Under the pieces are notes generated by a model. That model was not told the origin of the DNA. It saw only the letters and a program-made list of their open reading frames with translations, and made no database searches. A DNA stretch of 64,000 nucleotides from Candidatus Latescibacterota bacterium (GTDB lineage: Bacteria; Latescibacterota; UBA2968; UBA8231), in assembly GCA_965203175.1 (NCBI GenBank), contig OZ241867.1:4288001-4352000 (forward strand), read 5' to 3'. Shown here one piece after another: positions 10,056 to 45,580 of this stretch. Each line of letters begins with the position of its first letter. Within the stretch, counting starts at the first letter, position 1. The translations under genes were made by a program, and so were the position numbers.

Positions 10056-10177
10056 AGCACACCCCTAGCATTTTTCGCTAGGTAGCACATTGGACGTAGG
10101 TAGGTAAAGAGAGGTGGAGGTTGACTTCATCTCTCTTTATCTATCGCCTCTGCACCGTTTTCAGGAAGGCATTTTCA

Positions 10178-12885: not shown

Positions 12886-12944
12886 TGGTTGATTGTGGTG
12901 CTGATGGTACTGACTGGCAAAAATTCAAAAGGGAGGATTCCAGC

Positions 12945-23362: not shown

Positions 23363-23399
23363 ATTTTTTATACTATATAGTCTAGCGGGAGAAGAAGTT

Positions 23400-25451
23400 A
23401 TGAAACGTCTAGCGAATTTGTGGCTTTGGTTTCTCGTCGCAGCATCGGCTACGGCCGCGGCGGCGGACATTTCTTTGTGGCAGATCGGAGGGAGTGGCCT
23501 TCGGTGGGCCGATAGCGACTCGGCTCAAGTGATGATCGACTTTGCCAGCCCGAATAACTCAATCCAGCCGGTGCTGGTCAGCGCGGATACGACGGTCTTT
23601 CCCCTGCTCGAAAACTGGTCGCCAAAAAAGAATCCAGACGAGCTGGGTTTTGTCGATGGCGAGCGGCCCCGCGCTTGGAAGGGCCAGGCCGGCACCTCTT
23701 CGACGGTTGACAACGCGCTCAACCTCATCGACGGCAGCGGCAAGACGTACAATCCGGTGACTAGCAACAGCATTAACAGCGAGTACTACACCATTGATTT
23801 GGGGGTGCCGGTGCCGTTGTTCCGCTTTGCCATGAGCACGCCGGACAAGGGGTTTTTCCGCTCGGATGGAACCCCGCTAGAGGAAGACGCCATCCCGGCC
23901 TTTGAAGTGTCGATCGCCCCAGACACCAACAACGACGTGCTGCACACGCCCAACGGGCCCCCTATCGGGGAAATCATCGCCGAGGCGCGCGAGAATGTCG
24001 TCCCCAAGATTGTGGCTGATTTTCCCCTGCAATACGTGCGCTATGTCCGCTACAAGCGCAAGAATTCGATCCTCGACGAGGCGACGAATCAGTCGTCTGG
24101 GCATTCGGGCACGGCGCGCAAGGGGACGGTGGCCGAGTTCTTTCTCTGGGGAGAGGGAATCCCCAAGCGGGCCACGTACAAGACGTTCATTTTTGACCTC
24201 GGCACGGTCGTCAACTTCGGTCGGCTGTTCTGGAAGGCCACGCCCATGCGCCTAGTCGACGGCGTGGCCGAGGAAGCTCCGGATGCCAACGTGCAAATCG
24301 AGGTCGAAGCGCGCACTGGGATCGACGCAGATCCAGACATCTACTACGAATTCACGGATATGGGGACGCGCGTCGTCGTCGAGCAAAAACGCTATCAGGG
24401 CGTGCTGAAAAACCAGAGCGCGGCCGTTACGAATGCCGATGGGTTGGGCGGAACCCTGACTCTTTCCACGCGGCCCAAGCCGGGGCTCCGCGCTGGCATT
24501 GAGTACGACCAACAAAACTGGACGTTTTGGTCTTTTCCGACGACCGAGTCCGACCGACCCCTCAATCTCAATCGGGGATCCCATCTGCAAATTAAGGTGG
24601 TGCTGCACAGCGAGCGGTTCGACGAATTCGTGCGCCTCGATTCCCTGTGGATTGAGACCTCGCCGATCTTGGCCAGTCGCGTCGTGGCCGAGGTGGCCGA
24701 GCTTGGCCAGCCCAACCCGGCGCGCGGTGTGGCCGAGGTCCCCTTGGGCGAGATGACGGACTTCACCTACGACATCAAGGCGGAATTCGCGGCTGGTGAG
24801 GTGGGTTTTGACGCCCTGCGGATTAGCACCGGCAGCACCCAGACCGAGTTCAAAGGGCTGGAAGTGGATGGAATTGCAACCGATCCAGCCGGGGTAGAGG
24901 TTGTGGACGACGGCTTTGTGGTGCAGTTGCCGCAGCGCATAAACAGTGCCTACAATCCGAATTTACGGGTGACCTTTGCCGCCGAAGTCTTCGACTTTGC
25001 GCGCACCTTTGAAGGCGAGGTCTTTAACTCCGGTGGTACCGAGCTGCCACAGCCTGTCGAAAGTGGGGACGTCAGCGATGCGATCGGCACCAATAGCCTG
25101 CGGGTTTTGGCTGCAAGCGCGACCAATCCGCAGTTAGTGCAGGATGTGCGGTTTTCCAGCGGCGTGGTCACTCCTAACGGCGACGGAGTCAATGACGAGT
25201 TGGTCATTTCCTACTCGCTCTTCGCCCTGCCACAATCGGTGCCGGTGCAGTTGCAAGTGTTTTCGCTGGACGGTCGCCGAGTGGCTCAAGTCCAGCGCGG
25301 TCAGCAGGGGTCCGGTCCCCAGCAATTGCACTGGGATGGCCGCGACCAACGCGGTGAGACGCTCGCCCCGGGCCTTTATCTTTTGGGGATCGGCATTGAG
25401 GCCGAAGACAAGAGCGCCCTACAACTGCGGCCCATTAACATCGCTTATTGA
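23400..25451 (+). CDS. Secreted AY-tail family protein (copy 2)
   Basis: ATG 23400 begins a signal peptide. LIDG...YYTIDLGVPVP discoidin-like motif. VTPNGDGVND, WDG, LAPGLY. Ends INIAY. Confidence 0.7.
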   Translation: MKRLANLWLWFLVAASATAAAADISLWQIGGSGLRWADSDSAQVMIDFASPNNSIQPVLVSADTTVFPLLENWSPKKNPDELGFVDGERPRAWKGQAGTSSTVDNALNLIDGSGKTYNPVTSNSINSEYYTIDLGVPVPLFRFAMSTPDKGFFRSDGTPLEEDAIPAFEVSIAPDTNNDVLHTPNGPPIGEIIAEARENVVPKIVADFPLQYVRYVRYKRKNSILDEATNQSSGHSGTARKGTVAEFFLWGEGIPKRATYKTFIFDLGTVVNFGRLFWKATPMRLVDGVAEEAPDANVQIEVEARTGIDADPDIYYEFTDMGTRVVVEQKRYQGVLKNQSAAVTNADGLGGTLTLSTRPKPGLRAGIEYDQQNWTFWSFPTTESDRPLNLNRGSHLQIKVVLHSERFDEFVRLDSLWIETSPILASRVVAEVAELGQPNPARGVAEVPLGEMTDFTYDIKAEFAAGEVGFDALRISTGSTQTEFKGLEVDGIATDPAGVEVVDDGFVVQLPQRINSAYNPNLRVTFAAEVFDFARTFEGEVFNSGGTELPQPVESGDVSDAIGTNSLRVLAASATNPQLVQDVRFSSGVVTPNGDGVNDELVISYSLFALPQSVPVQLQVFSLDGRRVAQVQRGQQGSGPQQLHWDGRDQRGETLAPGLYLLGIGIEAEDKSALQLRPINIAY

Positions 25452-25462
25452 GGGAAGCACTC

Positions 25463-27919
25463 ATGTTCAATCGAGCCACCGCCTTAGTGCTGCTGCTCAC
25501 CTGCCACGCCCGCGCCGAGTTTCTCACCTTCGACAGCCAAGAGACCTGGGAGGCCAACTGGTCGCTTAAGCCGCAGTTAAACGTCTTCACCCCAGAGGGG
25601 CACTTGGGGCTGATCAAGTTCCGCAAGGACATCAATGCCACGCTCGACGCCCATCTCTTCGTCCACCCGACCAATGAGCGCGGGGATGTGCCCGGCGGCA
25701 TCTGGTCTGCGCTGAGTAACCCCAACACCGCTCCCCGGATCATAGACGGGGATGCAGCCACCTTTTGGAAGCCAGCCGGCGGCGACCCGCTCGACAAGTG
25801 GATCGTGCAAATCGACTTGGGTCGCGCGGTACTGGCCAAAGAGATCCGCCTCCACTTCCCCGATGAAGAGGGGGCCAAGCCCTTTCGTCAGTTCAGCGTT
25901 TTCGCTTCTACAGGTGCCCACGTGGCGGCCTTAGAGGACGTATATCGCTTCGCGCCAATCTATCGCACGACCAAGCCCAACTTGGATACGTATGTCAGCT
26001 TTGGGTTCAAGCCGGCTGTGGAGGATACCACCCGCGCTGTAGAACAACTGAGCGGTGCCGGAGGCAGCGCGGATTTTACCGCTCCGGAGTTTACCGGTGA
26101 TGCCAATACCGCCACCACGGGAGGTCGCAACAAGGTAGTGGCTACCGGCCAAGCGGATTCGCGGGTAGCCGCTAACTCTAGGTGGCAAATGATCCAGTTC
26201 ATCCGCTTCCTCGTCGATGAGCACCAGCTCGATGGCGCGCTTGCCGAAATCGAAGTCATTACCGTTGGCGACAACATCAGCCTTGGGGTCGAGGAAAAGG
26301 GCGGCACGTACATCAATGGATCGCGGGCGACCGACCCCTTCTTTTGGCTCGACGGAGATCTTAATACGTACGGGGTCATCGAGGTGCATCAGCAGTTTAC
26401 TGAGTCGCGCGGCACGGCCTATGAAGGGGGCTTGTGGTGGCAGGTGGATCTGGGGGCGACCTACTGGGTGGACGACGCGTTCGTCTATTGGCAAAAAGCT
26501 GGCGAGCGTCTGGCCGACTTCCGCTTGGGTACCAATAACGCCGGCACAGGGTACACTTTCTTCTCTTCCGACGGCACCAAGACCCTGACCGGTGAAATTG
26601 ACTTTGATACGTGGATTTTTGAACCGGAATGGGCCAACGAGCGCGAGAAATACAAGCGGCACTATCGCTATTTGTTCAATCCGCGCAAGGTGCGGCATAT
26701 CTTCTGGCTGGCCCTACACGACTTGGGTTGGCGCGCCCATCCCATGGAGCTACAGATGTTCTCCCCAGGCCACCCGGCCGAAGTCGTGATCCAATCCAAT
26801 TTTTTGGATCTGAGCGCGCTTGCTGGCGACGGACAGCCCAAGGTGATCAAGGCCCTCCACTACGACGCTGATCTGCCGCCCAATACTCAGATTGAACTGC
26901 GTTCCCGCTCGGGCAACGAGATGGGCGAGGTGTACACTTTTCACAACAAGATCGGCGAGGTCGTCACTGAGGAGAAGTGGAACAGCTCGCCCAAGGTACT
27001 GCGGGGCCGAGTGGATACCTCGGTCGTCGTTGGGGAGACTTGGAGCGAGTGGAGCAACGTGTACAAGCTGTCGGGCGAGCCTTTTAAGTCGGATTCGCCG
27101 CGCAAATTCGTGCAGCTAGAGTTGGTTATGAGCACGGAAGACCCGGAGGTGGCTCCCACAGTGCGCTCGGTCGAACTGGAGTTTGTCGATGCGCTGGTCA
27201 ACGAGGCGCGCGGATCGATTCTACCGCGCCAAGCCAAGCCCAACGAGGCTACCCGTTTCACTTATATGCTGTGGCCGTCCGTGACCCCGGAGAACACGGG
27301 CTTTGATCGCCTGCGCTTGGTCGTGCCCGACCTAGTGCAGGCCGAGGAAGTCGAGGTAATGATCGCCGGTCAGGTGGTCGTGCCAACCGCTATGGATATT
27401 GCCGCTGATTCGCTGCTGATCAACTTGCCGCAGGTAGTCCAAGGCGACTCCGTGCAGGTCGCTTTCACCACTCGGCTGGTGCGGAATGCCGCGGTTGTAG
27501 AAGCCGATCTGGGCCTGAGCGATGCGCCGGGCCTGTGGCAAGATGTCGAGCCGGCCGAGCGCCGATCTAACGTGGTACTTCTACCTGAACTGGCCGACAG
27601 CGACCGCTTGATTGGCGACTTGCAGCTTTCGAGCCGGGTACTCACGCCCAATGGCGATGGGGTCAACGACGCTGTGGAGTTGAGCTTTGTCGTCTTCAAG
27701 GCCCAAGATGCGGTGCCCATAGTCGAGGTGAGCGACTTGGTAGGCCGGCCCGTGGCCCAATTGACGCCGGTCTCAGAGGGACCGACTCGCCGCTTTGAGT
27801 GGAATGGCCAAAACGCAGCCGGCGCGATTGTGCCCCCGGGCATCTATCTCTGGCGCATAGACGTAAACGCAGACTCAGGCGATGCCATTGAGCTGCGCGT
27901 CGTCGAGGTGGCGTACTGA
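25463..27919 (+). CDS. Secreted AY-tail family protein (copy 3), two discoidin-like domains
   Basis: Signal peptide ending ARA. IIDGD..TFW..QIDLGR and WLDGD..WWQVDLGA. LTPNGDGVND. Ends VEVAY. Confidence 0.7.
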   Translation: MFNRATALVLLLTCHARAEFLTFDSQETWEANWSLKPQLNVFTPEGHLGLIKFRKDINATLDAHLFVHPTNERGDVPGGIWSALSNPNTAPRIIDGDAATFWKPAGGDPLDKWIVQIDLGRAVLAKEIRLHFPDEEGAKPFRQFSVFASTGAHVAALEDVYRFAPIYRTTKPNLDTYVSFGFKPAVEDTTRAVEQLSGAGGSADFTAPEFTGDANTATTGGRNKVVATGQADSRVAANSRWQMIQFIRFLVDEHQLDGALAEIEVITVGDNISLGVEEKGGTYINGSRATDPFFWLDGDLNTYGVIEVHQQFTESRGTAYEGGLWWQVDLGATYWVDDAFVYWQKAGERLADFRLGTNNAGTGYTFFSSDGTKTLTGEIDFDTWIFEPEWANEREKYKRHYRYLFNPRKVRHIFWLALHDLGWRAHPMELQMFSPGHPAEVVIQSNFLDLSALAGDGQPKVIKALHYDADLPPNTQIELRSRSGNEMGEVYTFHNKIGEVVTEEKWNSSPKVLRGRVDTSVVVGETWSEWSNVYKLSGEPFKSDSPRKFVQLELVMSTEDPEVAPTVRSVELEFVDALVNEARGSILPRQAKPNEATRFTYMLWPSVTPENTGFDRLRLVVPDLVQAEEVEVMIAGQVVVPTAMDIAADSLLINLPQVVQGDSVQVAFTTRLVRNAAVVEADLGLSDAPGLWQDVEPAERRSNVVLLPELADSDRLIGDLQLSSRVLTPNGDGVNDAVELSFVVFKAQDAVPIVEVSDLVGRPVAQLTPVSEGPTRRFEWNGQNAAGAIVPPGIYLWRIDVNADSGDAIELRVVEVAY

Positions 27920-28612: not shown

Positions 28613-28669
28613 AACCTTCTGGTGATGAGAAGTTTTACTTCAATATCAACGAGGCTTGCAGTAGCATGC

Positions 28670-31018
28670 ATGATCGAGAGACGCGGGATTTACTGCGTGC
28701 TCACGGCCCTGTTCATCTGCGGTGTTAGCCATGCCGAAGAAATCCGCTTCGACTCCCCGGCCGAGTGGGCGACTTGGGAGGTTCCGGTTGATATCGTCCA
28801 GTTTGCAGACGACGGCTCGCTAGAGCTGAGAAAATTCCGCAAGGAAATCAACGCCACTCTTGATGCTCATCTTTTCACCCAACCCACTCAGACCCGTGGC
28901 AAGGTCCAGGGGGGGATCTGGCAGGTCGGATCCAATCCGACGGCGGCCCGACGCATCATGGACGGCAATCTGGAGACGGTGTGGCGACCTAGTCAAGCCG
29001 ACGACTTGGTCGATTGGGTGGTGACCATCGACTTGGGGCGGCCCGTGCTAGCCGAGCGCATCCGCTTGGTGTTTCCCGACCGCGCAGGAGCGCGTCCTTG
29101 GCGGCAATTTAGCGTTTTCACGGCCAATGGTGCGCGCATCCAATCCACGGATGACGTCTTCAAATTCGACCAAGCCTTTCAGACGACTCAGCCCAACCAA
29201 GAGCAGGTCGTCGATATCGAACTGGTCGGCGAGCGCGACGTAACGCGGGTCATTGACGAAAACCTCGGGCTGGATCCAGCCGCGCTAAATACCTTCCGCA
29301 TGGTGCGCTTTGTGCGCGTGCGCGCCGACGAAAAAAGTGCGGATGCAGCTTTGGCCGAAGTGGAGGTGGTCGCCGCAGGCGACAACATAAGTCTCGGAGT
29401 CTTGGCGCGCGGCGGCAGCTTCGACAATGGACTTTTGGCGCGCGAGCCGCAGAATATGTTCGACGGCATCACCGACACGTACGGCAATATATTCACTGTT
29501 AAGACTAAGGGCGGCTGGCGCGAGAGTGGGGTGTGGTGGTCGGTTGATTTAGGGGCGCTGTTCTGGCTCGACGAGGCATTCATCTACTGGCAGGATCGCG
29601 GCGAGGGCCTGTCGAGCTTCCTATTCGAGGGATTGCAGGCTGGTTCTGGATACCAAATCCTCTTTTCCGATGGGCGGCGCACCATTGCCGGCGACATCGA
29701 CTACACGCCGCTGATCTTCGAGCCAAGGCCAGTCGGCGCGGAGTGGAACTTGCGCCACCATCGCTACGCGTTTGCTCCGCGCAAGATCCGCTACTTGTTC
29801 TGGCATTCGCTGACCGATACGGGCTGGTTTTCCCACCCCATGGAGTTGATGCTGTTCTCGCCGGGCTATCCCGCGCAGGTGGTATTGCTCTCGGACTTTA
29901 TCGACCTCGGCCAACTCGCTGGCGATGGCCGCGCCAAGGCCATCAAGCGCTTGCTCTGGGAGGCGACAACGCCGGATCAGACGCGGTTACAGGTGCGCTC
30001 GCGGTCGGGCAATACCCTGCAAGAGTTCTACACGTTCTACGATAAAAAGGGTGAGGAAGTCACCGAGACGCGCTACGGGAGCCTGCCCAAAGTCATCCGC
30101 GGCCCCATTGACACCACGGTCGTCGTAGGAGCCGATTGGGGCGCGTGGAGCAACTTCTACCAGTTTTCCGGCGAGGCGTTTAAGTCGGAGACGCCACGCC
30201 GCTTTATCCAATTGGAGTTGATTCTCTCTACGGAGGATCCCGCTGTCGCACCGGTGCTACACGCGCTGGCACTGGATTTTGAGGATGCGCTGGTCTCGCA
30301 GGCGGCTGGACAGGTTGCTCCGCGCTATGTCGTACCCAACGAGGCGACGCGGTTTACGTATGCGCTGCGGACGAGCGCAACGGAGGGCGATTCAGGGTTT
30401 GACCGGATGCGCTTTTCTACGCCTAGCGCTGTGGATGCAGCAGATGTGCGGCTGTGGATTGGTGGTGCGGCGCACGAGCCGAGTGCCGTGCGGGTAGTGG
30501 GGGATTCGCTGCTGTTTGTCGATTTGCCGGAGACGGTGCGGACGGATTCTGTCACCGTGGAATTCACCACTAAGGTCCTGCGCAACGCCACGGTTTTTGC
30601 CGCGGACTTAGGGCAAGAAGCACGTCCTGATCTGTGGCAGTCGGTGGAAGCGGCTGAGCGGCAATCGAACTTGGTGTTTCTGCCGGATTTACCCGGCAGC
30701 GAGCGGTTGATCGGCGATTTGCAGGTTGTGCCGCCGGTGTTTTCGCCCAACGGCGATGGGATCAACGACCACGTGCAGATACACTTTGCGCTGTTTAAGG
30801 CGGTGGATGCGTCTCCGAGCGTGCGCATTTTCGATTTGGCGGGGAGGGAAGTGGCGGTTCTTACTTCGTCGGGTGCGGATGTGTTGCAGTCGTTTAGTTG
30901 GGATGGATTGGATGCGTCGGGTGAGTGGGTGGCACCGGGCGTTTACGTATGCCGCATTGCTGCGGGAGCCGATGCTGGGCAGGGAGAAGTAGTGCGCACC
31001 CTAGCTGTAGCCTATTGA
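28670..31018 (+). CDS. Secreted AY-tail family protein (copy 4)
   Basis: Collinear with copy 3. Signal peptide ending SHA. FSPNGDGIND. Ends LAVAY. Start uncertain (28622-28670). Confidence 0.7.
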   Translation: MIERRGIYCVLTALFICGVSHAEEIRFDSPAEWATWEVPVDIVQFADDGSLELRKFRKEINATLDAHLFTQPTQTRGKVQGGIWQVGSNPTAARRIMDGNLETVWRPSQADDLVDWVVTIDLGRPVLAERIRLVFPDRAGARPWRQFSVFTANGARIQSTDDVFKFDQAFQTTQPNQEQVVDIELVGERDVTRVIDENLGLDPAALNTFRMVRFVRVRADEKSADAALAEVEVVAAGDNISLGVLARGGSFDNGLLAREPQNMFDGITDTYGNIFTVKTKGGWRESGVWWSVDLGALFWLDEAFIYWQDRGEGLSSFLFEGLQAGSGYQILFSDGRRTIAGDIDYTPLIFEPRPVGAEWNLRHHRYAFAPRKIRYLFWHSLTDTGWFSHPMELMLFSPGYPAQVVLLSDFIDLGQLAGDGRAKAIKRLLWEATTPDQTRLQVRSRSGNTLQEFYTFYDKKGEEVTETRYGSLPKVIRGPIDTTVVVGADWGAWSNFYQFSGEAFKSETPRRFIQLELILSTEDPAVAPVLHALALDFEDALVSQAAGQVAPRYVVPNEATRFTYALRTSATEGDSGFDRMRFSTPSAVDAADVRLWIGGAAHEPSAVRVVGDSLLFVDLPETVRTDSVTVEFTTKVLRNATVFAADLGQEARPDLWQSVEAAERQSNLVFLPDLPGSERLIGDLQVVPPVFSPNGDGINDHVQIHFALFKAVDASPSVRIFDLAGREVAVLTSSGADVLQSFSWDGLDASGEWVAPGVYVCRIAAGADAGQGEVVRTLAVAY

Positions 31019-33404
31019 GGTGGATTAGAGCGGTATGAGGTGGAGAAAATACAGGGTTTGCCATTTGCTCTTGGGCCTGTTCATCTGTGGTGCGAGCCGA
31101 GCGGAGGAAGTTCGTTTCGACACTCCGGAGGCGTGGGAGGCTTGGGATATCCCGGTAGATATCGTCCAGTTTGCGGACGACGGTTCGCTGAAGTTGAAGA
31201 AATTTCGCAAACAGATCAACGCTGTCCTCGACGCACCCCTCTTCACTCATCCCTCTCAGAAGCGCGGCGAGGTCCAGGGCGGGATATGGAGTGCCGGTAG
31301 CAACGAGGTGGACGCGCCCAAGCTCATAGATGGCGATCCAGCGACCTATTGGCAGCCCGATGTAGCAGACCAGCTCGTCGATTGGTCGGTCGGTATCGAC
31401 TTGGGAAGGCCGGTACTGGCGCGGGAGATCAAGCTGATATTCCCCGACGAAGAGGGCGCTCGGCCCTTGCGGCAGTTTAGCGTCTTTGTCACTCAGGGTG
31501 CCCGGATTCAGTTCCGGGACGACGTGTTCCGCTATCGCAAGATCTTCCAGACGACCAAGCCCAATACCGAGACTACCATTGCGATTCCGCTGCTAGGCAG
31601 TGCGCTGGATACCACGCGGGTGCTTGATGAGGACAGAGACGTTGACTTGAATGCCGAGCAGGACTTCCAGATGGTGCGGCTAATCCGCGTCGTCGCCGAT
31701 GAGCAAAGCAGCGATGCAGCCCTAGCCGAAATTGAAGTCCTCGCCCAGGGGGACAACGTCAGCTTGGGGACTTTGGAACGAGGTGGGCGCTTTGAACACG
31801 GCTTGCTGGCGCGCGAGCCGCAGAACATGTTCGACGGCAATATGGACACCTTCGGCAATATTCTCACCTCGGGGGGGACCAAGGGCGGCTGGCGCGAGGG
31901 CGGGCTATGGTGGCAGGTGGATTTGGGTGCACTGTTCTGGATCGACGAGATGTTTATATATTTTAAAACTCGGGGTGAGGGCATGTCGAGTTTCTTGTTC
32001 GAAAGGCTGCACCACGGAAGCGGTTACAACATCCTGTTCTCAGACGGGCGGCTCACCACGGGCGGAGATTTGGATCTGACCTTCCTGCTGCGCGAGGACA
32101 TCGCCATTAACGCGGCGTCGGCAGCCGCACGGGGGATTCGCCACATCCGCTATCTTTTTCAGCCGCGCAAGATCCGCTACATCTTCTGGCACGGCCATCT
32201 GGATCAAGGCTGGTTTTCGCATCCAACGGAATTTATGCTGTTTTCACCGGGCTATCCCGCGCAGGTGGTGTTGCTCTCGGGCTTTATCGATCTCGGCCAA
32301 CTCGCCGGAGACGGCCGTCCCAAGGCTATTAGGCGTTTGCGCTGGGAGGCGACAACGCCCGATCTGACGCAGTTGCAGGTGCGCTCTCGGTCGGGCAATA
32401 CCCTGCAAGAATTCTACACGTTCTACGACAAAAAGGGTGAGGAAGTCACCGAGACGCGCTATAACAGCCTGCCCAAAGTCATCCGCGGTCCCATCGACAC
32501 CATGGTCGTCGTAGGAGCCGATTGGGGCGCGTGGAGCAACTTCTACCAGCTTTCCGGCGAGGCGTTTAAGTCGGAGACGCCGCGCCGTTTTATCCAGTTG
32601 GAGCTGATTCTTTCCACCGAGGACCCCGCTGTCGCACCGGTGTTGCACGCGCTGGCACTGGATTTTGAGGATGCGCTGGTCGCACAGGCGGCTGGGCAAG
32701 TTATGCCGCGCCATGCCGTACCCAACGAGGCGACGCGGTTTACGTATGTGCTGCGGACGAGTGCGGCTGCGGACGACTCGGGCTTTGACCGGTTGCGCTT
32801 TTCCACGCCGAGTGCTGTGGATGCAGCAGACGTGCGGCTGTGGATTGGTGGTGCGGCGCACGAGCCGAGTGCCGTACGCGCGATGGGGGATTCGCTACTT
32901 TTTGTAGATTTACCGGAGACGGTGTGGACGGATTCTGTCACCGTGGAATTCACCACTAAGGTCCTGCGCAACGCCACGGTTTTTGCTGCGGACTTAGGGC
33001 AAGAAGCGCGTCCTGATCTGTGGCAGTCGGTAGAGGCAGCCGAGCGGCAAGCGAACTTGGTGTTTCTGCCGGATCTACCCGGCAGCGAGCGGCTGATCGG
33101 CGATTTGCAGGTTGTGCCGCCGGTGTTTTCACCCAACGGCGATGGCATCAACGACCACGTGCAGATACGCTTTGCGCTGTTCAAGGCGGTGGATGCGTCT
33201 CCGAGCGTGCGCATCTTTGACTTGGCAGGTCGGGAAGTAGCGGTGCTGATGCCGTTTGGTAGGGATGTATTGCAGTCGTTTAGTTGGGATGGATTGGATG
33301 CATCGGGTATTCGGGTCGCGCCTGGGGTGTACGTGTGCCGCATTGACGCGGGAGCCGATGCCGGACAGGGGGAAGTAATGCGTACCCTAGCCGTAGCCTA
33401 TTGA
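29861..33404 (+). repeat. Direct repeat of about 1.16 kb: 29861-31018 and 32247-33404 (3' halves of copies 4 and 5)
   Basis: Near-identical DNA with the same 2386-nt offset at both ends, from CCGGGCTATCCCGCGCAGGT to GCCTATTGA. Confidence 0.9.
31035..33404 (+). CDS. Secreted AY-tail family protein (copy 5)
   Basis: Close paralog of copy 4. Signal peptide ending SRA. FSPNGDGIND. Ends LAVAY. Confidence 0.75.
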   Translation: MRWRKYRVCHLLLGLFICGASRAEEVRFDTPEAWEAWDIPVDIVQFADDGSLKLKKFRKQINAVLDAPLFTHPSQKRGEVQGGIWSAGSNEVDAPKLIDGDPATYWQPDVADQLVDWSVGIDLGRPVLAREIKLIFPDEEGARPLRQFSVFVTQGARIQFRDDVFRYRKIFQTTKPNTETTIAIPLLGSALDTTRVLDEDRDVDLNAEQDFQMVRLIRVVADEQSSDAALAEIEVLAQGDNVSLGTLERGGRFEHGLLAREPQNMFDGNMDTFGNILTSGGTKGGWREGGLWWQVDLGALFWIDEMFIYFKTRGEGMSSFLFERLHHGSGYNILFSDGRLTTGGDLDLTFLLREDIAINAASAAARGIRHIRYLFQPRKIRYIFWHGHLDQGWFSHPTEFMLFSPGYPAQVVLLSGFIDLGQLAGDGRPKAIRRLRWEATTPDLTQLQVRSRSGNTLQEFYTFYDKKGEEVTETRYNSLPKVIRGPIDTMVVVGADWGAWSNFYQLSGEAFKSETPRRFIQLELILSTEDPAVAPVLHALALDFEDALVAQAAGQVMPRHAVPNEATRFTYVLRTSAAADDSGFDRLRFSTPSAVDAADVRLWIGGAAHEPSAVRAMGDSLLFVDLPETVWTDSVTVEFTTKVLRNATVFAADLGQEARPDLWQSVEAAERQANLVFLPDLPGSERLIGDLQVVPPVFSPNGDGINDHVQIRFALFKAVDASPSVRIFDLAGREVAVLMPFGRDVLQSFSWDGLDASGIRVAPGVYVCRIDAGADAGQGEVMRTLAVAY

Positions 33405-37515: not shown

Positions 37516-40437
37516 TTATTTGAGCAAGGTTAGTTGTTTGGTGGCTAAATAGCCTCCGGCTCGCAATTGGTAGAAATAGGTGCCGCTGGCGACTGTGTGT
37601 CCGGCGTCGTTGCGCCCATTCCACTGGGTGCGATAGTATCCAGCGGCGAGATGTTGTGCGACCAAGGTGCGGATCTTTTGGCCGATAGCGTCGTACAGGG
37701 TCAATTCGACGGCGGCCGGAGTCGCTAGCTGGAATTCGATGGTCGTGGCTGCATTGAAGGGATTGGGGTAGTTCTGGGTAAGGGCAAAGGCGGCCGGTGT
37801 GGTCCCTTTGGCTGCGACGGGGTCTAGACGGGCGATCCATGTAGCTATGAGATCAGCTCCGCGCTCGTCGATGACTGAGGAAGCCAGCGGCGGCATGCGA
37901 AAGGTGCCCATCGTCAGCATCCGCAGGTAGAGCGTGGAAAGCTGCGGTTCTCCAGGGGAGAGGATGAGGGCCTCTGGCTCGCCTATATCGCCGAGCGTGG
38001 GGAAGGCCCCGACCGTATTGGTTTCGGCCAGGGGCGTGTCGTAGCGCAGGTCGATGATGGTGCGGCCGACGCTCTCGGGCCGGTGGCACGGCGCACAGTT
38101 GACGTCCAAGTACGAGCGGGCGCGCTGGTCGAGCGGGATGCTGGGGTCGAAGGGATTGGGCAGGTGAGGCAAGGAAGACAGGTCGGTTGGCAACTCCTCG
38201 GTGAAAAGGCCCTGTTGGGCGAGGGTGTGCAGCTGGTTTTGCTCCGCGTCTGTGTAGAGTTGGGCCGCGTGTACGCCGAGGACGTAGCCCGCGCCCTTGG
38301 TGTGGCAGACCTCGCAGTCTTGGCGCGCGGGAAAATAGTACTCCTGCAAGAGAAATCCCACTGGATCTTGGGGATCGTCAATCACGTATGCAACAGTCGT
38401 GCTGTCGGCGAGTAAGGTGGCGTCGGTGCCGGTTTCGTTCCACAGGTAGCTATAACCGTCCCAACCTGGAGTACCTACGCGCTTGATGAGGAAGCGCGTT
38501 TCGATGATGCGCCGGCTGGCCGGATCGCCGCGCACCAAGTCGAGGTAAAAGTTTTTGATCAGCAGGGTTTCGTCGGGAAAGCCCCAAGGCCCACGGCTGG
38601 CAAAGTCAATGCGCTCGCCGGGCGGCAGGCGAATGAACCGCGTTTTTGTGGTTCCGTCCGACCAAAACGGCGCATTGACTTCGTACGGCACCACGCCGGC
38701 CGCGGGTGTTTGCGCGGCGAGGTCGCTGAAAACCTGCGCATCGGCCAAGCTCGCAGGTGGGAACTCCTCAGCAGGCGGTAGGACGATTTCCCACAGCCCG
38801 CGCTTGCCACTCCATTCGATCACATAGAGACGATTGCCGATGATTTCCGCGTCAATAGGGTTGGAAAATCCGCCGACGATGCGGGTGACACGCGCCTCGT
38901 AGTTGTCGCCGACTTTGGCTAAGTCGAGATGCAGCAGATCTTGGCTAGGGTCGTTGAACGGTCCGTTGACACTGTCCCCGTCGGGATCGCCCCGAGTCCA
39001 ACTGAGCGTGAAGCCGTCACCTTGAAACGGCTCGGCAAGGGCATGGTCCGCGTCGAATACCAATCCGAGCGGCGAGCGATGCGCGGTGAAGGTGCCGAAG
39101 CGCACGCCCTCTTCGCTGGCATCCTTGATTTGGCCGTCGGCTGGGTCTCGGTAGGCGTCGGCGTCTGGTCCGAGATTGATCACTGGGTCGGTGAAATCGC
39201 GCGGTGGCGGTGGGTATGTGGGATCGTTGTGGTAATAGCCTTCGCGCACGGCCGTGGAGCGGGGAGATAGAAGGAAATCGGTGGCTGGGTCGTAGTCGGG
39301 AAATTGCTGCGGGGTGTCGTCGAGACCCATGCGCCAGGGGAAGCCGTAGTGATGCCCTTGACGCAGCCAATTGAGTTCCTCGGGCATGTCGCGGCCCGGT
39401 CCGTTTTCCGTGGTGAAAAGGTCGCCGTTGGGGGCGAAGGCGAAGTCATAGGCATTGCGCAGGCCCTCGGCAAAGAGGAGTCCTTGGTCGAGCAGGGCAT
39501 AGCGGCTGTTGGGCAGCACGAGGTCGCGGGCATCGGTCGGGACGCGCAAAATTACGGCGGTAAGCGCGGTTTCGCGCAGCCCAGGGAAGTGCCCATTGCC
39601 GTCTTGGATCTCGCCGTGATCGGTGCGCGAGCCGCTGTTGATAAAGAGTGTGCGATTGTCGGGGCTGACGATTAGCGCGTTGACCTCGTGGTTGTAGATG
39701 CAGTCGCACCGCTCATAGGGTTCGGTTTCCGCGAGGGTAAACCAGATGCGCTCGCCGCTGCTCGGATCGACTTCGCCTTTGGTGATGGTGGCGATATTGT
39801 AGATGGACAGGTCAATGCGTTTGAGGACGTAAAAGGTGCCGGCTTCGTCGATAAACAGGGCGCTTGGGCGGATGAAGCCGTGGTCAGCGACCGTGTACGC
39901 CGTGCCTTCAGGCAAGAGGGTGATGTCGCCATTGGTTGTCTTGAGGACGTAGCGGTTGTTGGTCGTAGGGTCGCGGCCAAAGATGGAGGCGGCGAGGATG
40001 TCGTCGATGGGAACGTCGGCGGGCAGGTTGTCCGGGGCGAGCTGTTCCCACTGCCGCTCGCCGGTGTCGGCGTCGAGCAAAATGCCTCGGGCGAGGGCAA
40101 ACTGGCCGCTGTCGCGGGGGCCGTGGCGATTGGACGCAAGATAGAACGAGCCATCCGGCCCGATGGCAAAGCCCGTGAAGCCGCTGCTGATGCCGTGATC
40201 GCGGTGGGAGTATGTTGGGACGCGCCTAGCCGCTGTTAGGTTGATGCGTTCAATCGCGCCGTCCTGCCGCAAGATATAGAGCGCGTCGTCGCGCGGATCC
40301 TTGGCGATGCGGATGGTGCCTTGGGTGACGTTGAGGATGCGGCGGATTTCAATGTCGTCGCGGGTGGCTTGCGGCTCGGCGTACACGGTTGAGCAAAAGG
40401 CAACGAGCGCGACGAGCGAGAGGCAACGGACCAGCAT
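37516..40437 (-). CDS. Glucose/sorbosone (PQQ-type) dehydrogenase-like propeller plus diheme cytochrome c plus T9SS type-A-like C-terminal domain
   Basis: GLRNAYDFAF, ENGP, EELN, HYGFP. Two CXXCH (CEVCH, CAPCH) with RMPP. Tail FALTQNYPNPFN...ASGTYFYQL...LTLLK. Signal peptide. Confidence 0.8.
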   Translation of the reverse strand: MLVRCLSLVALVAFCSTVYAEPQATRDDIEIRRILNVTQGTIRIAKDPRDDALYILRQDGAIERINLTAARRVPTYSHRDHGISSGFTGFAIGPDGSFYLASNRHGPRDSGQFALARGILLDADTGERQWEQLAPDNLPADVPIDDILAASIFGRDPTTNNRYVLKTTNGDITLLPEGTAYTVADHGFIRPSALFIDEAGTFYVLKRIDLSIYNIATITKGEVDPSSGERIWFTLAETEPYERCDCIYNHEVNALIVSPDNRTLFINSGSRTDHGEIQDGNGHFPGLRETALTAVILRVPTDARDLVLPNSRYALLDQGLLFAEGLRNAYDFAFAPNGDLFTTENGPGRDMPEELNWLRQGHHYGFPWRMGLDDTPQQFPDYDPATDFLLSPRSTAVREGYYHNDPTYPPPPRDFTDPVINLGPDADAYRDPADGQIKDASEEGVRFGTFTAHRSPLGLVFDADHALAEPFQGDGFTLSWTRGDPDGDSVNGPFNDPSQDLLHLDLAKVGDNYEARVTRIVGGFSNPIDAEIIGNRLYVIEWSGKRGLWEIVLPPAEEFPPASLADAQVFSDLAAQTPAAGVVPYEVNAPFWSDGTTKTRFIRLPPGERIDFASRGPWGFPDETLLIKNFYLDLVRGDPASRRIIETRFLIKRVGTPGWDGYSYLWNETGTDATLLADSTTVAYVIDDPQDPVGFLLQEYYFPARQDCEVCHTKGAGYVLGVHAAQLYTDAEQNQLHTLAQQGLFTEELPTDLSSLPHLPNPFDPSIPLDQRARSYLDVNCAPCHRPESVGRTIIDLRYDTPLAETNTVGAFPTLGDIGEPEALILSPGEPQLSTLYLRMLTMGTFRMPPLASSVIDERGADLIATWIARLDPVAAKGTTPAAFALTQNYPNPFNAATTIEFQLATPAAVELTLYDAIGQKIRTLVAQHLAAGYYRTQWNGRNDAGHTVASGTYFYQLRAGGYLATKQLTLLK

Positions 40438-42495
40438 GACGTTCCTTAACGCAGCTCACTTGAGTAGCATGAGCTGGCGGGTGGCGACAAAGTCTCCGGC
40501 CGATAGTTGGTATAGATACGCGCCGCTGGCTACTGATTCGCCGCGCTCGTTGCGGCCGTCCCATTGCAGGCGGTGATGTCCAGCGGGCAGGGAATCGCTG
40601 ATGAGGGTGCGCACGCGCTGGCCGTTGATGCTGTAAATGGACAACTCGACTCGGGACGGAAGACCGAGTTGGAAGGTAATAGTAGTGCTTGCGTTAAAGG
40701 GGTTGGGGAAGTTCTGCGCCAGCGCAAACTCTGCGGGTACAACACCTTCGGCCTCGGCAATAGCCGTCTCGGTTGCAGCCTGCGGTAGGACTATTTCCCA
40801 TAGCCCGCGCCCGCCACCCCACTCGATAACGTAAATGCGATTGCCGATGATCTCCGCGTCGATGGGATTGGAAAACCCGCCGACGATGCGGGTGACGCGC
40901 GCTTCGTAGTTGTCGCCGACTTTGGCTAAGTCGAGGTGTAGCAGGTCTTCACTGGGGTCGTTGAACGGGCCGGCAACATCATCGCCGTCGGGATCGCCCT
41001 CGGTCCAGCTAAGCACGAAGCCGTCGCCTTGGAATGGCTCGGCGAGGGCATTATTTGCGTCGAATACCAGCCCCAAGGGGGAACGATGCGCGGTGAAGGT
41101 ACCAAAGCGCACGCCCTCTTCGCTGGCATCCTTGAGGTGGCCGTCGGCTGGATCGCGGTAGGCGTCGGCGTCTGGGCCGAGGTTGATCACCGGCTCGGTG
41201 AAGTCGCGCGGCGGCGGTGGATACGTGGGATCGTTGTGGTAGTAGCCTTCGCGCACGGCGGTGAATCTAGCGGGGAGGAGGAAGTCGCTGGCTGGGTCGT
41301 AGTCGGGGAATTGCTGTGGGGTATCTTCGAGACCCATGCGCCAAGGGAAGCCGTAGTGATGGCCTTCGCGCAGCCAGTTGAGCTCCTCGGCCATGTCGCG
41401 ATCCGGTCCGTTTTCCGTGGCGAAGAGGTCGCCGTTGGGCGCGAAGGCGAGGTCGTAGGCGTTGCGCAGGCCCTCGGCAAAGAGGAAGCCTTGGGCGCGA
41501 AGATCGTCGCGGTCGTTGGGTAGTACGAGGTCCCGCGCATCGGTCGGGACGCGCAAAACGATAGCCGTGAGCGCGGTTTCGCGCAGGTCAGGGAACTGCC
41601 TATTGCCGTCTTGCACCTCGCCGTGATCGGTGCGCGAGCCGCTGTTGATAAAGAGCGAGCGGTTGTCGGGGCTGACGACTAGCCCATTGACTTCGTGGTT
41701 AAAGATGCAGTCGCACCGCTCGTAGGGTGCGGTTTCCGCGAGGGTAAACCAGGTGCGCTCGGTGCTGACGATCATAGTATCGACCTGGCCCCTCTGTGCC
41801 TTGGGGAAACTATACCACTTCTTCTCGGTGATAATCCTGCCCTGCTTGTCGTGAAAGACGTACCATTCCTCTCCGCTGCTTGGATCGACTTCGCCTTTGG
41901 TGATGGTGGCGATGTTGTAGCTGGATAGGTCGATGCGTTTGAGGACGTAAAAGATGCCGTCGGCGTCGATGAACAGGGCACTGGGGCGGCTGAAACCGTG
42001 GTCGGCAGCCGTGTACACCGTGCCTTTAGGTACGAGAGTGATGTCGCCGTTGGTCTTGAGCGCGTAGCGGATGTCGGTCGTGGGATCGCGGCCGAGGCTG
42101 GTGGCGGTGAGGATGTCGTCGATGGGAACGTTGGCGGGCAGGTTGTCTGGGTCGAGTTGTTCCCATTGCCGCTCGCCGGTGTCAGCGTCGAGCAAAATGC
42201 CTCGGACAAGGGCAAAGTGGCCGCTGTCGCGCGGACCACGGCGGTTCGACGCGAGGTAAAACGAGCCATCTGGCCCAATGGCAAAGCCCGTAAAGCCGCT
42301 GCGGATGCCGTGATCGTCTCTGGAGTATGCGGGTGTGTGCGCGGCTGTCGCTAGGCCAATGCGATCAATCGAACCGTTCTGCCGCAAGGTATAGAGCGCA
42401 TTGTTGCGCGGATCCTTGGCGATGCGCACCGTACCTCGGGGGACGTTGAGGATGCGGCTAATTTCGATGTCGTCGCGGGTGGCTTGCGGGTCGGC
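38778..42495 (-). repeat. Tandem duplication of the dehydrogenase domain (about 38778-40380 and 40785-42495)
   Basis: Long stretches of near-identical DNA. Offset is 2007 nt at one end and 2115 nt at the other, consistent with a 111-nt insert and a 3-nt indel. Confidence 0.85.
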
Positions 42496-42552
42496 ATAGG
42501 CGGTGGAGCAAAGAGCAGCGAGTACAGCAAATAAGAGGTAATGGGCGAACAT
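40456..42552 (-). CDS. Glucose/sorbosone dehydrogenase-like protein with T9SS type-A-like tail, no heme domain
   Basis: Paralog of 37516-40437 lacking CXXCH. Tail FALAQNFPNPFN...ASGAYLYQL...LMLLK. Signal peptide ending AYA. Confidence 0.8.
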   Translation of the reverse strand: MFAHYLLFAVLAALCSTAYADPQATRDDIEISRILNVPRGTVRIAKDPRNNALYTLRQNGSIDRIGLATAAHTPAYSRDDHGIRSGFTGFAIGPDGSFYLASNRRGPRDSGHFALVRGILLDADTGERQWEQLDPDNLPANVPIDDILTATSLGRDPTTDIRYALKTNGDITLVPKGTVYTAADHGFSRPSALFIDADGIFYVLKRIDLSSYNIATITKGEVDPSSGEEWYVFHDKQGRIITEKKWYSFPKAQRGQVDTMIVSTERTWFTLAETAPYERCDCIFNHEVNGLVVSPDNRSLFINSGSRTDHGEVQDGNRQFPDLRETALTAIVLRVPTDARDLVLPNDRDDLRAQGFLFAEGLRNAYDLAFAPNGDLFATENGPDRDMAEELNWLREGHHYGFPWRMGLEDTPQQFPDYDPASDFLLPARFTAVREGYYHNDPTYPPPPRDFTEPVINLGPDADAYRDPADGHLKDASEEGVRFGTFTAHRSPLGLVFDANNALAEPFQGDGFVLSWTEGDPDGDDVAGPFNDPSEDLLHLDLAKVGDNYEARVTRIVGGFSNPIDAEIIGNRIYVIEWGGGRGLWEIVLPQAATETAIAEAEGVVPAEFALAQNFPNPFNASTTITFQLGLPSRVELSIYSINGQRVRTLISDSLPAGHHRLQWDGRNERGESVASGAYLYQLSAGDFVATRQLMLLK

Positions 42553-42579: not shown

Positions 42580-42957
42580 TCAGGGCCGAAAGATTTTTAG
42601 ATCGAGTTCGTTGATTTCGCGGTAGTGTTTTCTATTGGCTGTACAAAGTGTTAAGTGATGTTCAATAGCGGTTGCAGCAATCAAGGCATCGGCCAGATAC
42701 AGCGCTGTTTTAAGGGTGTATTCTTCCATATATACAGACGCTCGGTGGCCGATGTTTTCAGTGAGAGGTACGGTCTGAAAAGCGTGATCCATGAGAAAAT
42801 TCTTGATCTTTTTTAACTCCTGCCGATTTCTTGCACCCTGGATAAATTCCATATACGTAACAATTGATATCTGACGATCAGCGATACGGTCAACGAGGTT
42901 TGCAGCCCCTGCATGGCCTCTGAAAACCCATATCACAACATCGGTATCAAAAATCAT
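42580..42957 (-). CDS. vapC: PIN-domain toxin (VapC family)
   Basis: IFDTDVVI, ISIVTYME, LADALIAATA, LCTANRKHY. Overlaps the upstream small gene. Confidence 0.9.
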   Translation of the reverse strand: MIFDTDVVIWVFRGHAGAANLVDRIADRQISIVTYMEFIQGARNRQELKKIKNFLMDHAFQTVPLTENIGHRASVYMEEYTLKTALYLADALIAATAIEHHLTLCTANRKHYREINELDLKIFRP

Positions 42958-43192
42958 TCAAGCGGCCTTTGCGCAGATTGCGGACGTACGCATCGACATC
43001 GGTCATATCTTTTCTGTCTCGCCACAGACCAAAAGCCTCGTGGTCTTTTACCGATTTGTCTGTTCGCTGTCGGCTGGGAGACAGGATAGCTTTTTCCTTG
43101 CCGCGATAAAAGATAGTGACCGATTCGTTGCGGTCGAGCGCGAGCAAAACATCTTTCATGCGTCGTCTTAAGTCGAGAATAGATGCTTTCAT
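42947..43192 (-). CDS. Type II antitoxin, Phd/YefM-like N-terminus
   Basis: 81 aa, MKASILDLRR...ESVTIFYRGKEKAIL. AAGGAG RBS. Directly upstream of vapC with 11-nt overlap. Confidence 0.75.
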   Translation of the reverse strand: MKASILDLRRRMKDVLLALDRNESVTIFYRGKEKAILSPSRQRTDKSVKDHEAFGLWRDRKDMTDVDAYVRNLRKGRLNDF

Positions 43193-43634: not shown

Positions 43635-45404
43635 TCATCCATCGCAGACAGACAATCCCAGTTGATCTAGGTCATTGTCCGTTATCGTTTGCAAATTGGC
43701 TGGGATACACCCACTGAAGTTGTTGCCGCGCAGAGCCAGCCATTCCAAGTTGTTCAGTTGGGCTAACTCAGCAGGGATCGAGCCGCTGAGCTGGTTGCCG
43801 TCCAGACCCAGCGTTTGCAGGTTGTTCAGTTGGGCTAACTCAGCAGGGATCGAGCCGCTTAACTGGTTGTTGGACAGAGCCAGCCATTCCAAGTTGTTCA
43901 GTTGGGCTAACTCAGCAGGGATCGAGCCGCTTAACTGGTTGCCGTCCAGACCCAGCAATTCCAGGTTGTTCAGTTGTCCTAACTCAGCAGGGATCGAGCC
44001 GCTTAACTGGTTGAAGGCCAGAACCAGCGTTTGCAGGTTGTTCAGTTGGGCTAACTCAGCGGGGATTGAGCCGCTTAACTGGTTTTTGAACAGAATCAGC
44101 GTTTGCAGGTTGTTCAGTTGGGCTAACTCAGCAGGGATTGAGCCGCTGAGGCCGAGTTCAGTCAACCTCAGCCCGGTAACGCGCCCCTCGATATCGGTGG
44201 TCACGCCCTGCCAGATGCTGATCGGTTCGTCGCTGCCCCAATTGTCGCCCGTCCAAGCACTACCGCCGCCTGTAGCTGCATAGAAGGCTATCAGGGCCGC
44301 CCGATCAGCAGGATGCTCAGGCAACTCGGATGCATCGCAGAGAGACAATCCCAGTTGATCTAGGTCATTGTCCGTTATCGTTTGCAGACTGGCTGGGATA
44401 CACCCACTGAAGTTGTTGCCGCGCAGCCACAGCCATTGCAGGTTGTTCAGTTGGGCTAACTCAGCAGGGATCGAGCCGCTGAGTTGGTTGCCGTCCAGCC
44501 ACAGCCATTGCAGGTTGTTCAGTTGGGCTAACTCAGCGGGGATCGAGCCGCTGAACTGGTTGTTGGACAGAGCCAGCCATTGCAGGTTGTTCAGTTGGGC
44601 TAACTCAGCGGGAATTGAGCCGCTGAGCTGGTTGTTGGACAGAGCCAGCCATTGCAGGTTGTTCAGTTGGGCTAACTCAGCAGGGATCGAGCCGCTGAGC
44701 TGGTTGTTGGACAGAGCCAGCGTTGTCAGGTTGTTCAGTTGGGCTAACTCAGCAGGGATCGAGCCGCTGAGCTGGTTTATGGACAGAGCCAGCCATTGCA
44801 GGTTGTTCAGTTGGGCTAACTCAGCAGGAATTGAGCCGCTTAGGCCGAGTTCATACAGCTCCAGCTTGGTAATGCGCCCCTCGGTATCGGTGGTTGCGCC
44901 TTGCCAGGTGCCGATCGGTTCGTCGCTGCCCCAATTGTCGCCTGTCCAAGCACTACCGCCGCCCGTGGCTTCATAGAAGGCCAGCAGTACAGCGCGATCA
45001 TCGGATTGTTCGGGCATGGGTTCGGGCTCCGGCTCGTCTTCGACCGTCACGGGTGACGACTTGGTCAGGTCCGCCAAGGGTTGGATGTCCGTAATGTCGT
45101 TTCCCCACAAGAGCAACGTGTCCAGGTTGATGCAGTGCTGGATGCCGGCCAGATTCGTGATGCCTTGCTCGTTTGCCCGGAGTCGGGTCAGAGCCACCAG
45201 CTCATCGATGGTGATAGTAGCGCCGCGCGGCTTCTTCAGCGCCCAACGGAGGACGCGCGCCAAGTCCTGGTCGGCAAAGGAAGCACCTGCCAGTGCCTTG
45301 CCCGCGCCTGCGGTGGGCGCGGGACCTGGATTGACGCTTTTGTCCTCTGAGCAAGCAAAAAGGGCCAAAAGGGTAAAAAGGGCGATGAAAATGCGAGCGG
45401 TCAT
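43635..45404 (-). CDS. Leucine-rich-repeat lipoprotein with 12 plant-type 24-aa LRRs in two capped blocks
   Basis: Lipobox LFAC. Repeats LSGSIPAELAQLNNLxxLxLxxNQ. N-caps DRAxLxAFY.ATGG..W...W.....WQG. ATG 45404 after a purine-rich RBS. Confidence 0.9.
   Translation of the reverse strand: MTARIFIALFTLLALFACSEDKSVNPGPAPTAGAGKALAGASFADQDLARVLRWALKKPRGATITIDELVALTRLRANEQGITNLAGIQHCINLDTLLLWGNDITDIQPLADLTKSSPVTVEDEPEPEPMPEQSDDRAVLLAFYEATGGGSAWTGDNWGSDEPIGTWQGATTDTEGRITKLELYELGLSGSIPAELAQLNNLQWLALSINQLSGSIPAELAQLNNLTTLALSNNQLSGSIPAELAQLNNLQWLALSNNQLSGSIPAELAQLNNLQWLALSNNQFSGSIPAELAQLNNLQWLWLDGNQLSGSIPAELAQLNNLQWLWLRGNNFSGCIPASLQTITDNDLDQLGLSLCDASELPEHPADRAALIAFYAATGGGSAWTGDNWGSDEPISIWQGVTTDIEGRVTGLRLTELGLSGSIPAELAQLNNLQTLILFKNQLSGSIPAELAQLNNLQTLVLAFNQLSGSIPAELGQLNNLELLGLDGNQLSGSIPAELAQLNNLEWLALSNNQLSGSIPAELAQLNNLQTLGLDGNQLSGSIPAELAQLNNLEWLALRGNNFSGCIPANLQTITDNDLDQLGLSVCDG
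43638..45000 (-). repeat. Nested repeats: two copies (693-nt offset) each containing six 72-bp tandem units
   Basis: TTGTTCAGTTGGGCTAACTCAGCAGGGATCGAGCCGCT recurs every 72 nt. Identical block ends at 43675 and 44368. Confidence 0.9.
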
Positions 45405-45580
45405 ATCGTTCCCCCCTTCATTCAAGCGCTTTTACATGCTCTAAATTTCAAACGGATACACTACCGAAATGATGAAGCCACCAATTGCTCTTTTTCACGT
45501 CTCCTCTCTAGCCATCCCAGCCGGAGTCAGTGCGTGTAGGTCGCCTCCAAATTGCTATCGTGTACTCAGACCATTATTTA

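Follow-up and report, generated by a model that had tools for sequence, protein, structure and literature searches.

A 37-residue insert in a secreted dehydrogenase of a Latescibacterota bacterium, apparently copied in frame from a neighbouring AY-tail gene

The stretch considered here, 64,000 nt of contig OZ241867.1 from a Candidatus Latescibacterota bacterium (hereafter the window, meaning the whole of this stretch), contains two convergently oriented blocks of genes for secreted proteins. One holds four genes for AY-tail proteins, starting at 23283, 25448, 28622 and 31035, of which the last three are termed copies 3, 4 and 5; the other includes a glucose/sorbosone-type dehydrogenase gene and its tandem paralog (Table 1). 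The dehydrogenase harbours a stretch of 37 residues that the paralog lacks and that resembles a segment found in the AY-tail proteins. This insert is a real and fairly rare protein graft: the dehydrogenase gene has acquired, in frame, a copy of about 102–111 nt that code for a conserved piece of the AY-tail proteins.

Table 1. Coordinates of the insert, its relatives, its host genes and its junctions within the window
Feature	Position	Strand	Basis or remark
In-frame insert, 111 nt / 37 aa, dehydrogenase gene	41761..41871	-	Single gap relative to paralog; protein and DNA match to AY-tail copy 3
Homologous segment, AY-tail copy 3 (gene 25448-27919)	26924..27034	+	Closest donor type in the window; 19/37 aa and 71/111 nt identical
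Homologous segment, AY-tail copy 4 (gene 28622-31018)	30020..30130	+	16/37 aa identical, ungapped
Homologous segment, AY-tail copy 5 (gene 31035-33404)	32406..32516	+	17/37 aa identical, ungapped
Diverged, longer version of the segment, fourth AY-tail protein (gene 23283-25451)	24339..24515	+	MAFFT alignment only
Host gene for a secreted dehydrogenase of the glucose/sorbosone type (PQQ family), 698 aa, ending in a FlgD_ig / T9SS type A sorting domain	40456..42552	-	Pfam and TIGRFAM-type model scores
Tandem paralog, 973 aa, without insert, with an extra SO2930-type diheme cytochrome c domain	37516..40437	-	TIGR03806, E 8e-70, below its cut-off
Left copy of 10-nt direct repeat, CAGCGGAGAG	41869..41878	-	9/10 bases as in empty site
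Right copy of 10-nt direct repeat, CAGCACCGAG	41758..41767	-	8/10 bases as in empty site; starts 111 nt after left copy
Empty site in paralog, CAGCGGCGAG	39751..39760	-	Both insert flanks align, overlapping on these 10 nt
PQQ, pyrroloquinoline quinone; T9SS, type IX secretion system.

The insert comprises residues 228–264 of the minus-strand open reading frame (ORF) 40456–42552, reads EEWYVFHDKQGRIITEKKWYSFPKAQRGQVDTMIVST and is encoded by positions 41871–41761. Alignment of the host protein with the tandem paralog by BLASTP gives 76 % identity over 616 columns, with one clean 37-residue gap that falls between S-S-G and E-R-(T/I)-W-F, exactly where a preliminary description, made from the letters of the window, had placed a clean in-frame insertion of 111 nt relative to the twin gene. 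The gapless alignments which that description had drawn to AY-tail copies 3, 4 and 5 also hold, with the identities listed in Table 1, and a tblastn search of the insert against the whole window returns the three copies with E values of 6e-11, 5e-10 and 5e-9, respectively, the next match having an E value of 0.26. Ungapped BLOSUM62 scores of the insert are 102, 97 and 90 against copies 3, 4 and 5; in a control with shuffled inserts (n=300, 127,780 six-frame positions) the maximum score averaged 23.4 (standard deviation 4.6), with 42 as the highest value reached. The resemblance extends to the DNA, as blastn aligns the insert to copy 3 at 72.5 % identity over 80 nt (E 2e-7). Given these E values, shuffle scores and the DNA match, the similarity between the insert and the AY-tail segment is far beyond chance.

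With regard to the direction of copying, the distribution of the segment differs markedly between the two families, whose relatives are, according to their source names, uncultured Gemmatimonadota or Latescibacterota known from metagenome-assembled genomes (MAGs). Residues 130–360 of the dehydrogenase retrieved 241 relatives (E up to 1e-3), the best 120 of which were examined; five of these, P0005–P0009 (695–734 aa), carry the insert, and the other 115, mostly 661–662 aa in length (i.e. 698 minus 37), do not. Carriers would be expected at the top of such a ranking, since the insert itself raises their score. One further carrier, P0260, is a frameshifted dehydrogenase fragment. Residues 430–640 of AY-tail copy 3 retrieved 330 relatives, and amongst the best 120 of these the segment is present without gaps in 119, the exception being the garbled P0149; it is also found in distant AY-type proteins of 770–1027 aa. 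Because the segment is near-constant in the AY-tail relatives and occurs in only 5 of the 120 dehydrogenase relatives examined, it is native to the AY-tail family and was copied from an AY-tail gene into the dehydrogenase. The copy is old enough to have diverged, and most of the otherwise orthologous dehydrogenases lack it.

The donor was an AY-tail gene of the copy-3 type, as judged by shared residues and by third codon positions. The inserts of P0008 and P0009, which are the least diverged, have 26–27 of their 37 residues in common with copy-3-type proteins, as against 20–22 with copy 4, and the insert of the window agrees with copy 3 at 23 of 37 third codon positions, compared to 15 of 37 for copy 3 with copy 4. 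An identifiable donor sequence is present in the same genome (copy 3, 26924–27034; protein E 6e-11, DNA E 2e-7), 14.7 kb from the insert and in inverted orientation.

The junctions retain traces of how the segment may have arrived. The flanks of the insert are about 90 % identical to the paralog, where they converge on a single empty site, and the two ends of the insert resemble that site as imperfect direct repeats (Table 1). At the protein level, S-G-E precedes the insert and S-(G/S/T)-E closes it, with P0009 having S-G-E at both ends. Position 36 of the insert is S in five of the six carriers and N in one, as in the target, and V in 90 % of AY proteins. Pairs of G-E codons (GGN-GAG) border the segment in donor and target alike. 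We read this as about 102 nt of donor sequence plus a target duplication of 9–10 nt, or else as crossovers within the G-E microhomologies. Direct repeats of such a size, 111 nt apart, would permit precise excision by slippage, which would in turn account for a scattered set of carriers. No terminal inverted repeats are present at the ends of the insert and no other DNA copies of it exist in the window, its sole DNA relative being the coding segment of AY-tail copy 3; for these reasons a small transposable element, whether a miniature inverted-repeat transposable element (MITE) or a derivative of an insertion sequence, was considered and set aside as unlikely.

The carriers are indeed scattered over the host tree, as inferred from propeller columns after removal of those of the insert. 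Using FastTree on 116 of 122 rows (the six with <500 residues in the region were dropped), five state changes are needed to explain the carriers, and five are again required by an IQ-TREE analysis of 47 chosen rows, in which all 6 carriers were joined by 37 others and by 4 outgroups with the cytochrome fusion. P0009 and the insert-less P0073 are sisters (support 97), and a single clade of carriers is rejected by the approximately unbiased test (difference in log-likelihood 116, p 1.9e-6). The forms of 661 and 698 aa nevertheless appear to be orthologs, and, as is the case in the window, insert-less forms would seem to share contigs with paralogs that are fused to a cytochrome (P0053/P0120, P0060/P0114 and P0019/P0124). 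Relations amongst the inserts parallel the host tree, with P0008 and P0009 being closest to the AY proteins and the window copy grouping with P0005–P0007. The simplest reading is a single gain followed by repeated precise loss, or by related strains exchanging alleles with and without the insert. Loss by gene conversion from the insert-less paralog was considered and found no support, as the insert-less orthologs keep ortholog-type residues beside the site and none of the residues flanking the site is linked to the insert. Far from the insert, two residues of the dehydrogenase are enriched in carriers, namely L473 (4/6 carriers, 9/99 others) and H552 (5/6 and 12/99, respectively); both are probably ancestral states of basal lineages.

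The two families also treat the segment differently over time. Between the six carriers (15 pairs) the inserts are 51–84 % identical, compared to 88–96 % for the rest of the propeller, whilst AY proteins display the opposite pattern, with about 70 % identity in the segment and 45–65 % elsewhere. Nineteen positions are ≥90 % conserved in AY proteins, and there the six inserts match the consensus in 89 of 114 cells, as opposed to 42 of 108 at the other positions. The two families show a weak correlation in how variable each position is (Spearman rho 0.33, p 0.046). Since the insert outpaces its host in change and yet keeps its core residues, the pattern fits a folding piece that keeps its own fold under a weaker constraint than in its native place.

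Conservation of the wider locus could be assessed by a scan of genome contigs (79 loci, six patterns, one from the generic sorting tail). In all but one of the 79 loci the match is confined to the C-terminal region of the query, from residue 504 or later; the exception, and the only full-length relative, is found at locus L001, on a Gemmatimonadota MAG contig (JAYPJE010000009.1, 1–22354). The dehydrogenase encoded there lacks the insert and is 42 % identical. Gene order in L001 runs through a UvrD-type helicase, two radical-SAM methylthiotransferase-like genes, a T9SS-tailed protein and the dehydrogenase, followed convergently by a gene for a TPR membrane protein and by three AY-tail genes, which lie within 10 kb and all bear the segment. 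The two blocks are directly convergent in L001; in the window an FG-GAP/ASPIC gene and the cytochrome-fused paralog lie in between. Given this shared arrangement, the dehydrogenase and AY-tail blocks are old neighbours in inverted orientation, which gives the dehydrogenase gene a natural donor close by. The blocks are, at the same time, linked independently of the insert, as those of L001 adjoin without it. The earlier suggestion that the insert links the two convergent blocks survives only as regards the blocks themselves, which are conserved convergent neighbours.

How portable the segment is was addressed with a profile of 37 positions, built from the four window copies and scored against 1,835,955,588 representative proteins. 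This gave 39 matches at E values up to 1e-3, 28 of which are AY-type by their flanking motifs. Of the remaining 11, AY-type domains are present in P0261, the match is nearly full-length in P0248 and P0275, themselves short fragments, and P0260, the frameshifted dehydrogenase fragment with its insert, is the only full-length match outside AY-type proteins. The last seven cover just 15–22 of the 37 positions; three are Cys-rich repeat proteins, two are WG-repeat proteins, and the other two are a DUF6273 protein and a repeat protein that belongs to no family (19 of the 39 matches were examined with Pfam). A six-frame scan with the same profile over 79 fetched loci and the window (1.23 Mb) found only the four window copies and the three AY genes of L001. 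Going by the search of representatives and the six-frame scan, the segment is thus no widespread domain.

A second case of copying is nonetheless apparent within the AY-like proteins. P0261 (838 aa) has the segment at its usual place (442–466) and, in addition, tandem copies of its core at 564–589 and 596–621. This double unit of roughly 66 residues (P0261 residues 560–625) is present in 4 of 14 subfamily relatives, amongst which are P0281–P0283, and is inserted cleanly into the next domain, in a loop that looks like a hairpin and is short in the other 10. On this sequence evidence the segment was copied into a loop at least twice, once in the dehydrogenase and once in the AY-like subfamily, and the second event is real, if limited, support for calling the unit insertable. 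The preliminary description had proposed a portable mini-domain and suggested a profile search for further hosts. That proposal is borne out insofar as the segment is homologous in two unrelated families, has moved as a unit at least twice and gained a second insertion context from the 39 matches; it overstated the reach of the segment, for which the 1.84 billion representatives yield one full-length match outside AY-type proteins, the dehydrogenase fragment, and no third host family.

The host protein scores above the cut-off with Pfam GSDH (32.0 bits, cut-off 25) and with TIGR04183 for the T9SS type A sorting domain (35 bits, cut-off 23), and matches FlgD_ig with 43 bits. It reaches only 41 bits with TIGR03606, the cut-off of which is 434, and is therefore classed by its scores as a distant member of the glucose/sorbosone (PQQ-type) dehydrogenase family; its PDB sequence match to soluble glucose dehydrogenase is confined to profile positions 319–386. 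The cytochrome fusion of the paralog at 37516–40437 suggests a built-in electron acceptor for the enzyme pair. Directly adjoining the dehydrogenase gene upstream are a PIN-domain (VapC-like) gene and a small overlapping upstream ORF (42580–43192, minus strand), which likely form a toxin–antitoxin pair.

Amongst the AY-tail proteins, copies 3–5 display F5/8 type C (CBM32-like) family matches, with two such stretches in copy 3, and all four have a middle part without a Pfam family followed by a CHU_C / T9SS type B-like tail. The CHU_C scores straddle the cut-off of 27, with 23.6 bits for copy 3, 28.7 for copy 4, 26.7 for copy 5 and 28.1 for the fourth protein, and TIGR04131 gives 17–19 bits (cut-off 35). 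The predicted model of copy 3 has a mean pLDDT (predicted local distance difference test) of 85.8, and of 71–86 in 10-residue blocks over the segment. In this model the segment (residues 493–529) lies within a beta-rich domain of about 465–581, so that the source piece is predicted to belong to the third, beta-rich domain of these proteins. It begins in a long strand (492–500), two residues of turn after strand 480–489, and continues with a turn, a two-residue strand, a helix (508–513) and a second long strand (519–528). A fold search of the model against the PDB gave matches driven by the two F5/8 type C domains and none for the domain of the segment, whilst PDB sequence searches, for which profiles were made from the L001 dehydrogenase, from the domain of the segment and from each of the two families, returned nothing that covers the segment or the insertion site. 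Look-alikes of the domain in the ESM Atlas are unnamed clusters only, and a Pfam scan of the insert with its flanks and of the AY-tail segments, at E values up to 10, found no family.

The segments of copies 4 and 5, both on the plus strand, are identical at 102 of 111 nt and 35 of 37 residues, and these two genes are a recent tandem duplication. The segment of the fourth AY-tail protein, by comparison, is strongly diverged and about 22 residues longer, and was missed by both tblastn and the profile. The GTG start listed for its gene at 23283 overlaps the previous gene by 80 nt; the true start is more likely an internal ATG preceding a signal-peptide-like stretch. Another CHU_C-tailed protein in the window, of 653 aa at 10924 (plus strand), is without the segment.

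Other genes of the window can be described briefly. Several proteins of the locus have no Pfam family, namely those of 267 aa at 10121 and 897 aa at 12882 (both within 10121–15575, plus strand) and of 220 aa at 27950 (27950–28612, plus strand). On the minus strand, 43635–45425 encodes a leucine-rich-repeat lipoprotein-like product with very regular 24-residue repeats in two near-identical halves; the long repeat-driven ORFs opposite are probably spurious. Adjoining the secreted-protein locus at 45868–49113, also on the minus strand, is a sigma-54 activator fused to a Reg_prop two-component regulator propeller and a Y_Y_Y domain.

Taken together, these observations are best explained by a templated in-frame insertion into a permissive loop, the product of which is largely a passenger that still folds and is easily lost; we give this reading a probability of roughly 0.7. 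The donor would have been the neighbouring, convergently oriented AY-tail block, and the segment would have been transferred by a template switch, or by capture of a fragment, at short G-E codon homologies, leaving a target duplication of 9–10 nt. It would have landed at a beta-hairpin turn on the surface of the propeller, where an extra piece may be tolerated; such a turn on the outside of the propeller is inferred from two hydrophobic stretches around a D-P-S-S-G turn and from the L001 homolog, where the turn is short and has the same length. The insert could then have persisted mostly as a passenger decoration under relaxed constraint, with a small fold of its own kept, and its flanking direct repeats, or exchange between strains, may have let it be removed precisely, producing the scattered distribution.

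A number of points weigh against this account. Retained core residues and an intact frame in six diverged carriers fit a retained function equally as well as a retained fold. The predicted model of the dehydrogenase is poor (mean pLDDT 44.5, from an alignment of 51 rows that are all ≥78 % identical), and it is the sequence pattern that points to the hairpin-turn location and to its exposure at the surface. At the junctions, which are readable in the DNA of one carrier only, G-E pairs are common, the left G-E homology leaves one codon over if used as a crossover, and the two repeat copies in the window are just 7/10 identical to each other. Finally, the library of representatives holds one protein per 50 % cluster, so that patchy inserts in other families could be hidden, and the dehydrogenase insert itself surfaced there only through the fragment P0260.

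Chief amongst the alternatives is the docking tag for a surface complex suggested by the preliminary description, which had likened it loosely to dockerin-type recruitment. Under this proposal the segment is an autonomous binding mini-domain with the same partner on the dehydrogenase and on the AY-tail proteins, by which the enzyme is brought to a surface assembly. In its favour, no other part of the AY-tail proteins is as well conserved as the segment, the core residues of which survive in all six dehydrogenase copies; it has twice been copied into a loop, and all of its hosts are secreted, with T9SS-type tails and a conserved neighbourhood. A tag of this kind is hard to square with its presence in only 5 of the best 120 (of 241) dehydrogenase relatives, with a scatter over the tree that implies repeated loss or exchange, with an insert that changes faster than its host, with the lack of a third host family amongst the 39 profile matches, and with gene blocks that adjoin without any insert in L001. 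Nor was a dockerin-like or cohesin-like family found in the window proteins scanned. On balance the docking proposal is unlikely, and as a description of this insert it was not upheld.

Somewhat less probable still is a new function unrelated to that of the donor, whereby the insert alters, for example, the oligomeric state, stability or substrate access of the enzyme and some lineages retain it for that reason. Six carriers, with inserts that are 51–84 % identical, all have an intact frame, and their fast change could mean adaptation rather than drift; no linked changes occur near the site, however, and the hairpin turn to which the sequence pattern points would lie away from the conserved catalytic stretch. 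A bolder reading, which we regard as a long shot, is that a cassette of about 30 residues, folding autonomously, spreads repeatedly in the secreted-protein locus, with two independent loop insertions to date, and serves as an assembly or docking handle for a common partner wherever it is inserted. If so, copying some 100 nt out of a gene next door could be enough to recruit a new enzyme to the surface complex. An assembly artefact, or a similarity that is convergent or due to chance, is refuted, for although a common hairpin pattern makes up the first half of the segment, which has partial profile matches (15–18 of 37 positions) to WG-repeat and Cys-rich repeat proteins, the E value of 6e-11, the shuffle control, the DNA-level match with its excess at third codon positions, and six independent, diverged carriers on different contigs leave hardly any room for it.

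If the preferred reading of a templated insertion is accepted, the locus provides a clean natural case in which a bacterial protein gains a surface loop from a foldable piece of an unrelated neighbouring gene, and a single window of 64 kb shows the donor, the target, the empty site and the repeats at the junctions. It also advises caution in annotation, as a segment common to two families need not imply a common partner. For protein engineering, it offers as a lead a permissive site in a propeller enzyme and a unit of 34–37 residues that is tolerated in three different loops. Should the docking proposal prove true after all, the locus would reveal a very cheap evolutionary route by which an enzyme is recruited to a surface assembly.

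Several known systems bear comparison with this insert. Dockerin–cohesin pairs are similar in that a short module on a secreted enzyme is common to other surface proteins of the locus, but the present segment lies in an internal loop rather than at an end and is found in a small minority of orthologs; the Pfam scan of the insert with its flanks and of the AY-tail segments, at E values up to 10, gave no dockerin match, and no cohesin family was present in the 39 window proteins scanned. The beta-hairpin repeats of the WG family (WG_beta_rep, PF14903) resemble profile positions 1 to 17–18, which weakly and repeatedly match the WG-repeat proteins P0273 and P0280, although the segment itself has no Pfam match at E values up to 10 and its second half has no counterpart in them. 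In-frame insertions of MITE-like elements, or of elements like repetitive extragenic palindromes (REP), into bacterial genes vary in presence and absence, have short repeats at their ends and keep the frame. The present insert likewise varies in presence amongst close relatives, is bordered by short direct repeats and preserves the frame, but unlike these elements it has no terminal inverted repeats and no multi-copy DNA family in the window.

In events of the type known as MMBIR (break-induced replication mediated by microhomology) or fork stalling and template switching (FoSTeS), a short stretch is copied from an identifiable genomic donor, with short homologies at the junctions, a nearby inverted donor and a small target duplication. 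Such templated insertions by microhomology-mediated template switching are a close known counterpart. The present case differs from these in that it involves unrelated bacterial coding genes and an in-frame, foldable piece that has been long kept, with a mechanism that we infer; it is like them in its identifiable, nearby and inverted donor and, putatively, in its short junction homologies and its small target duplication.

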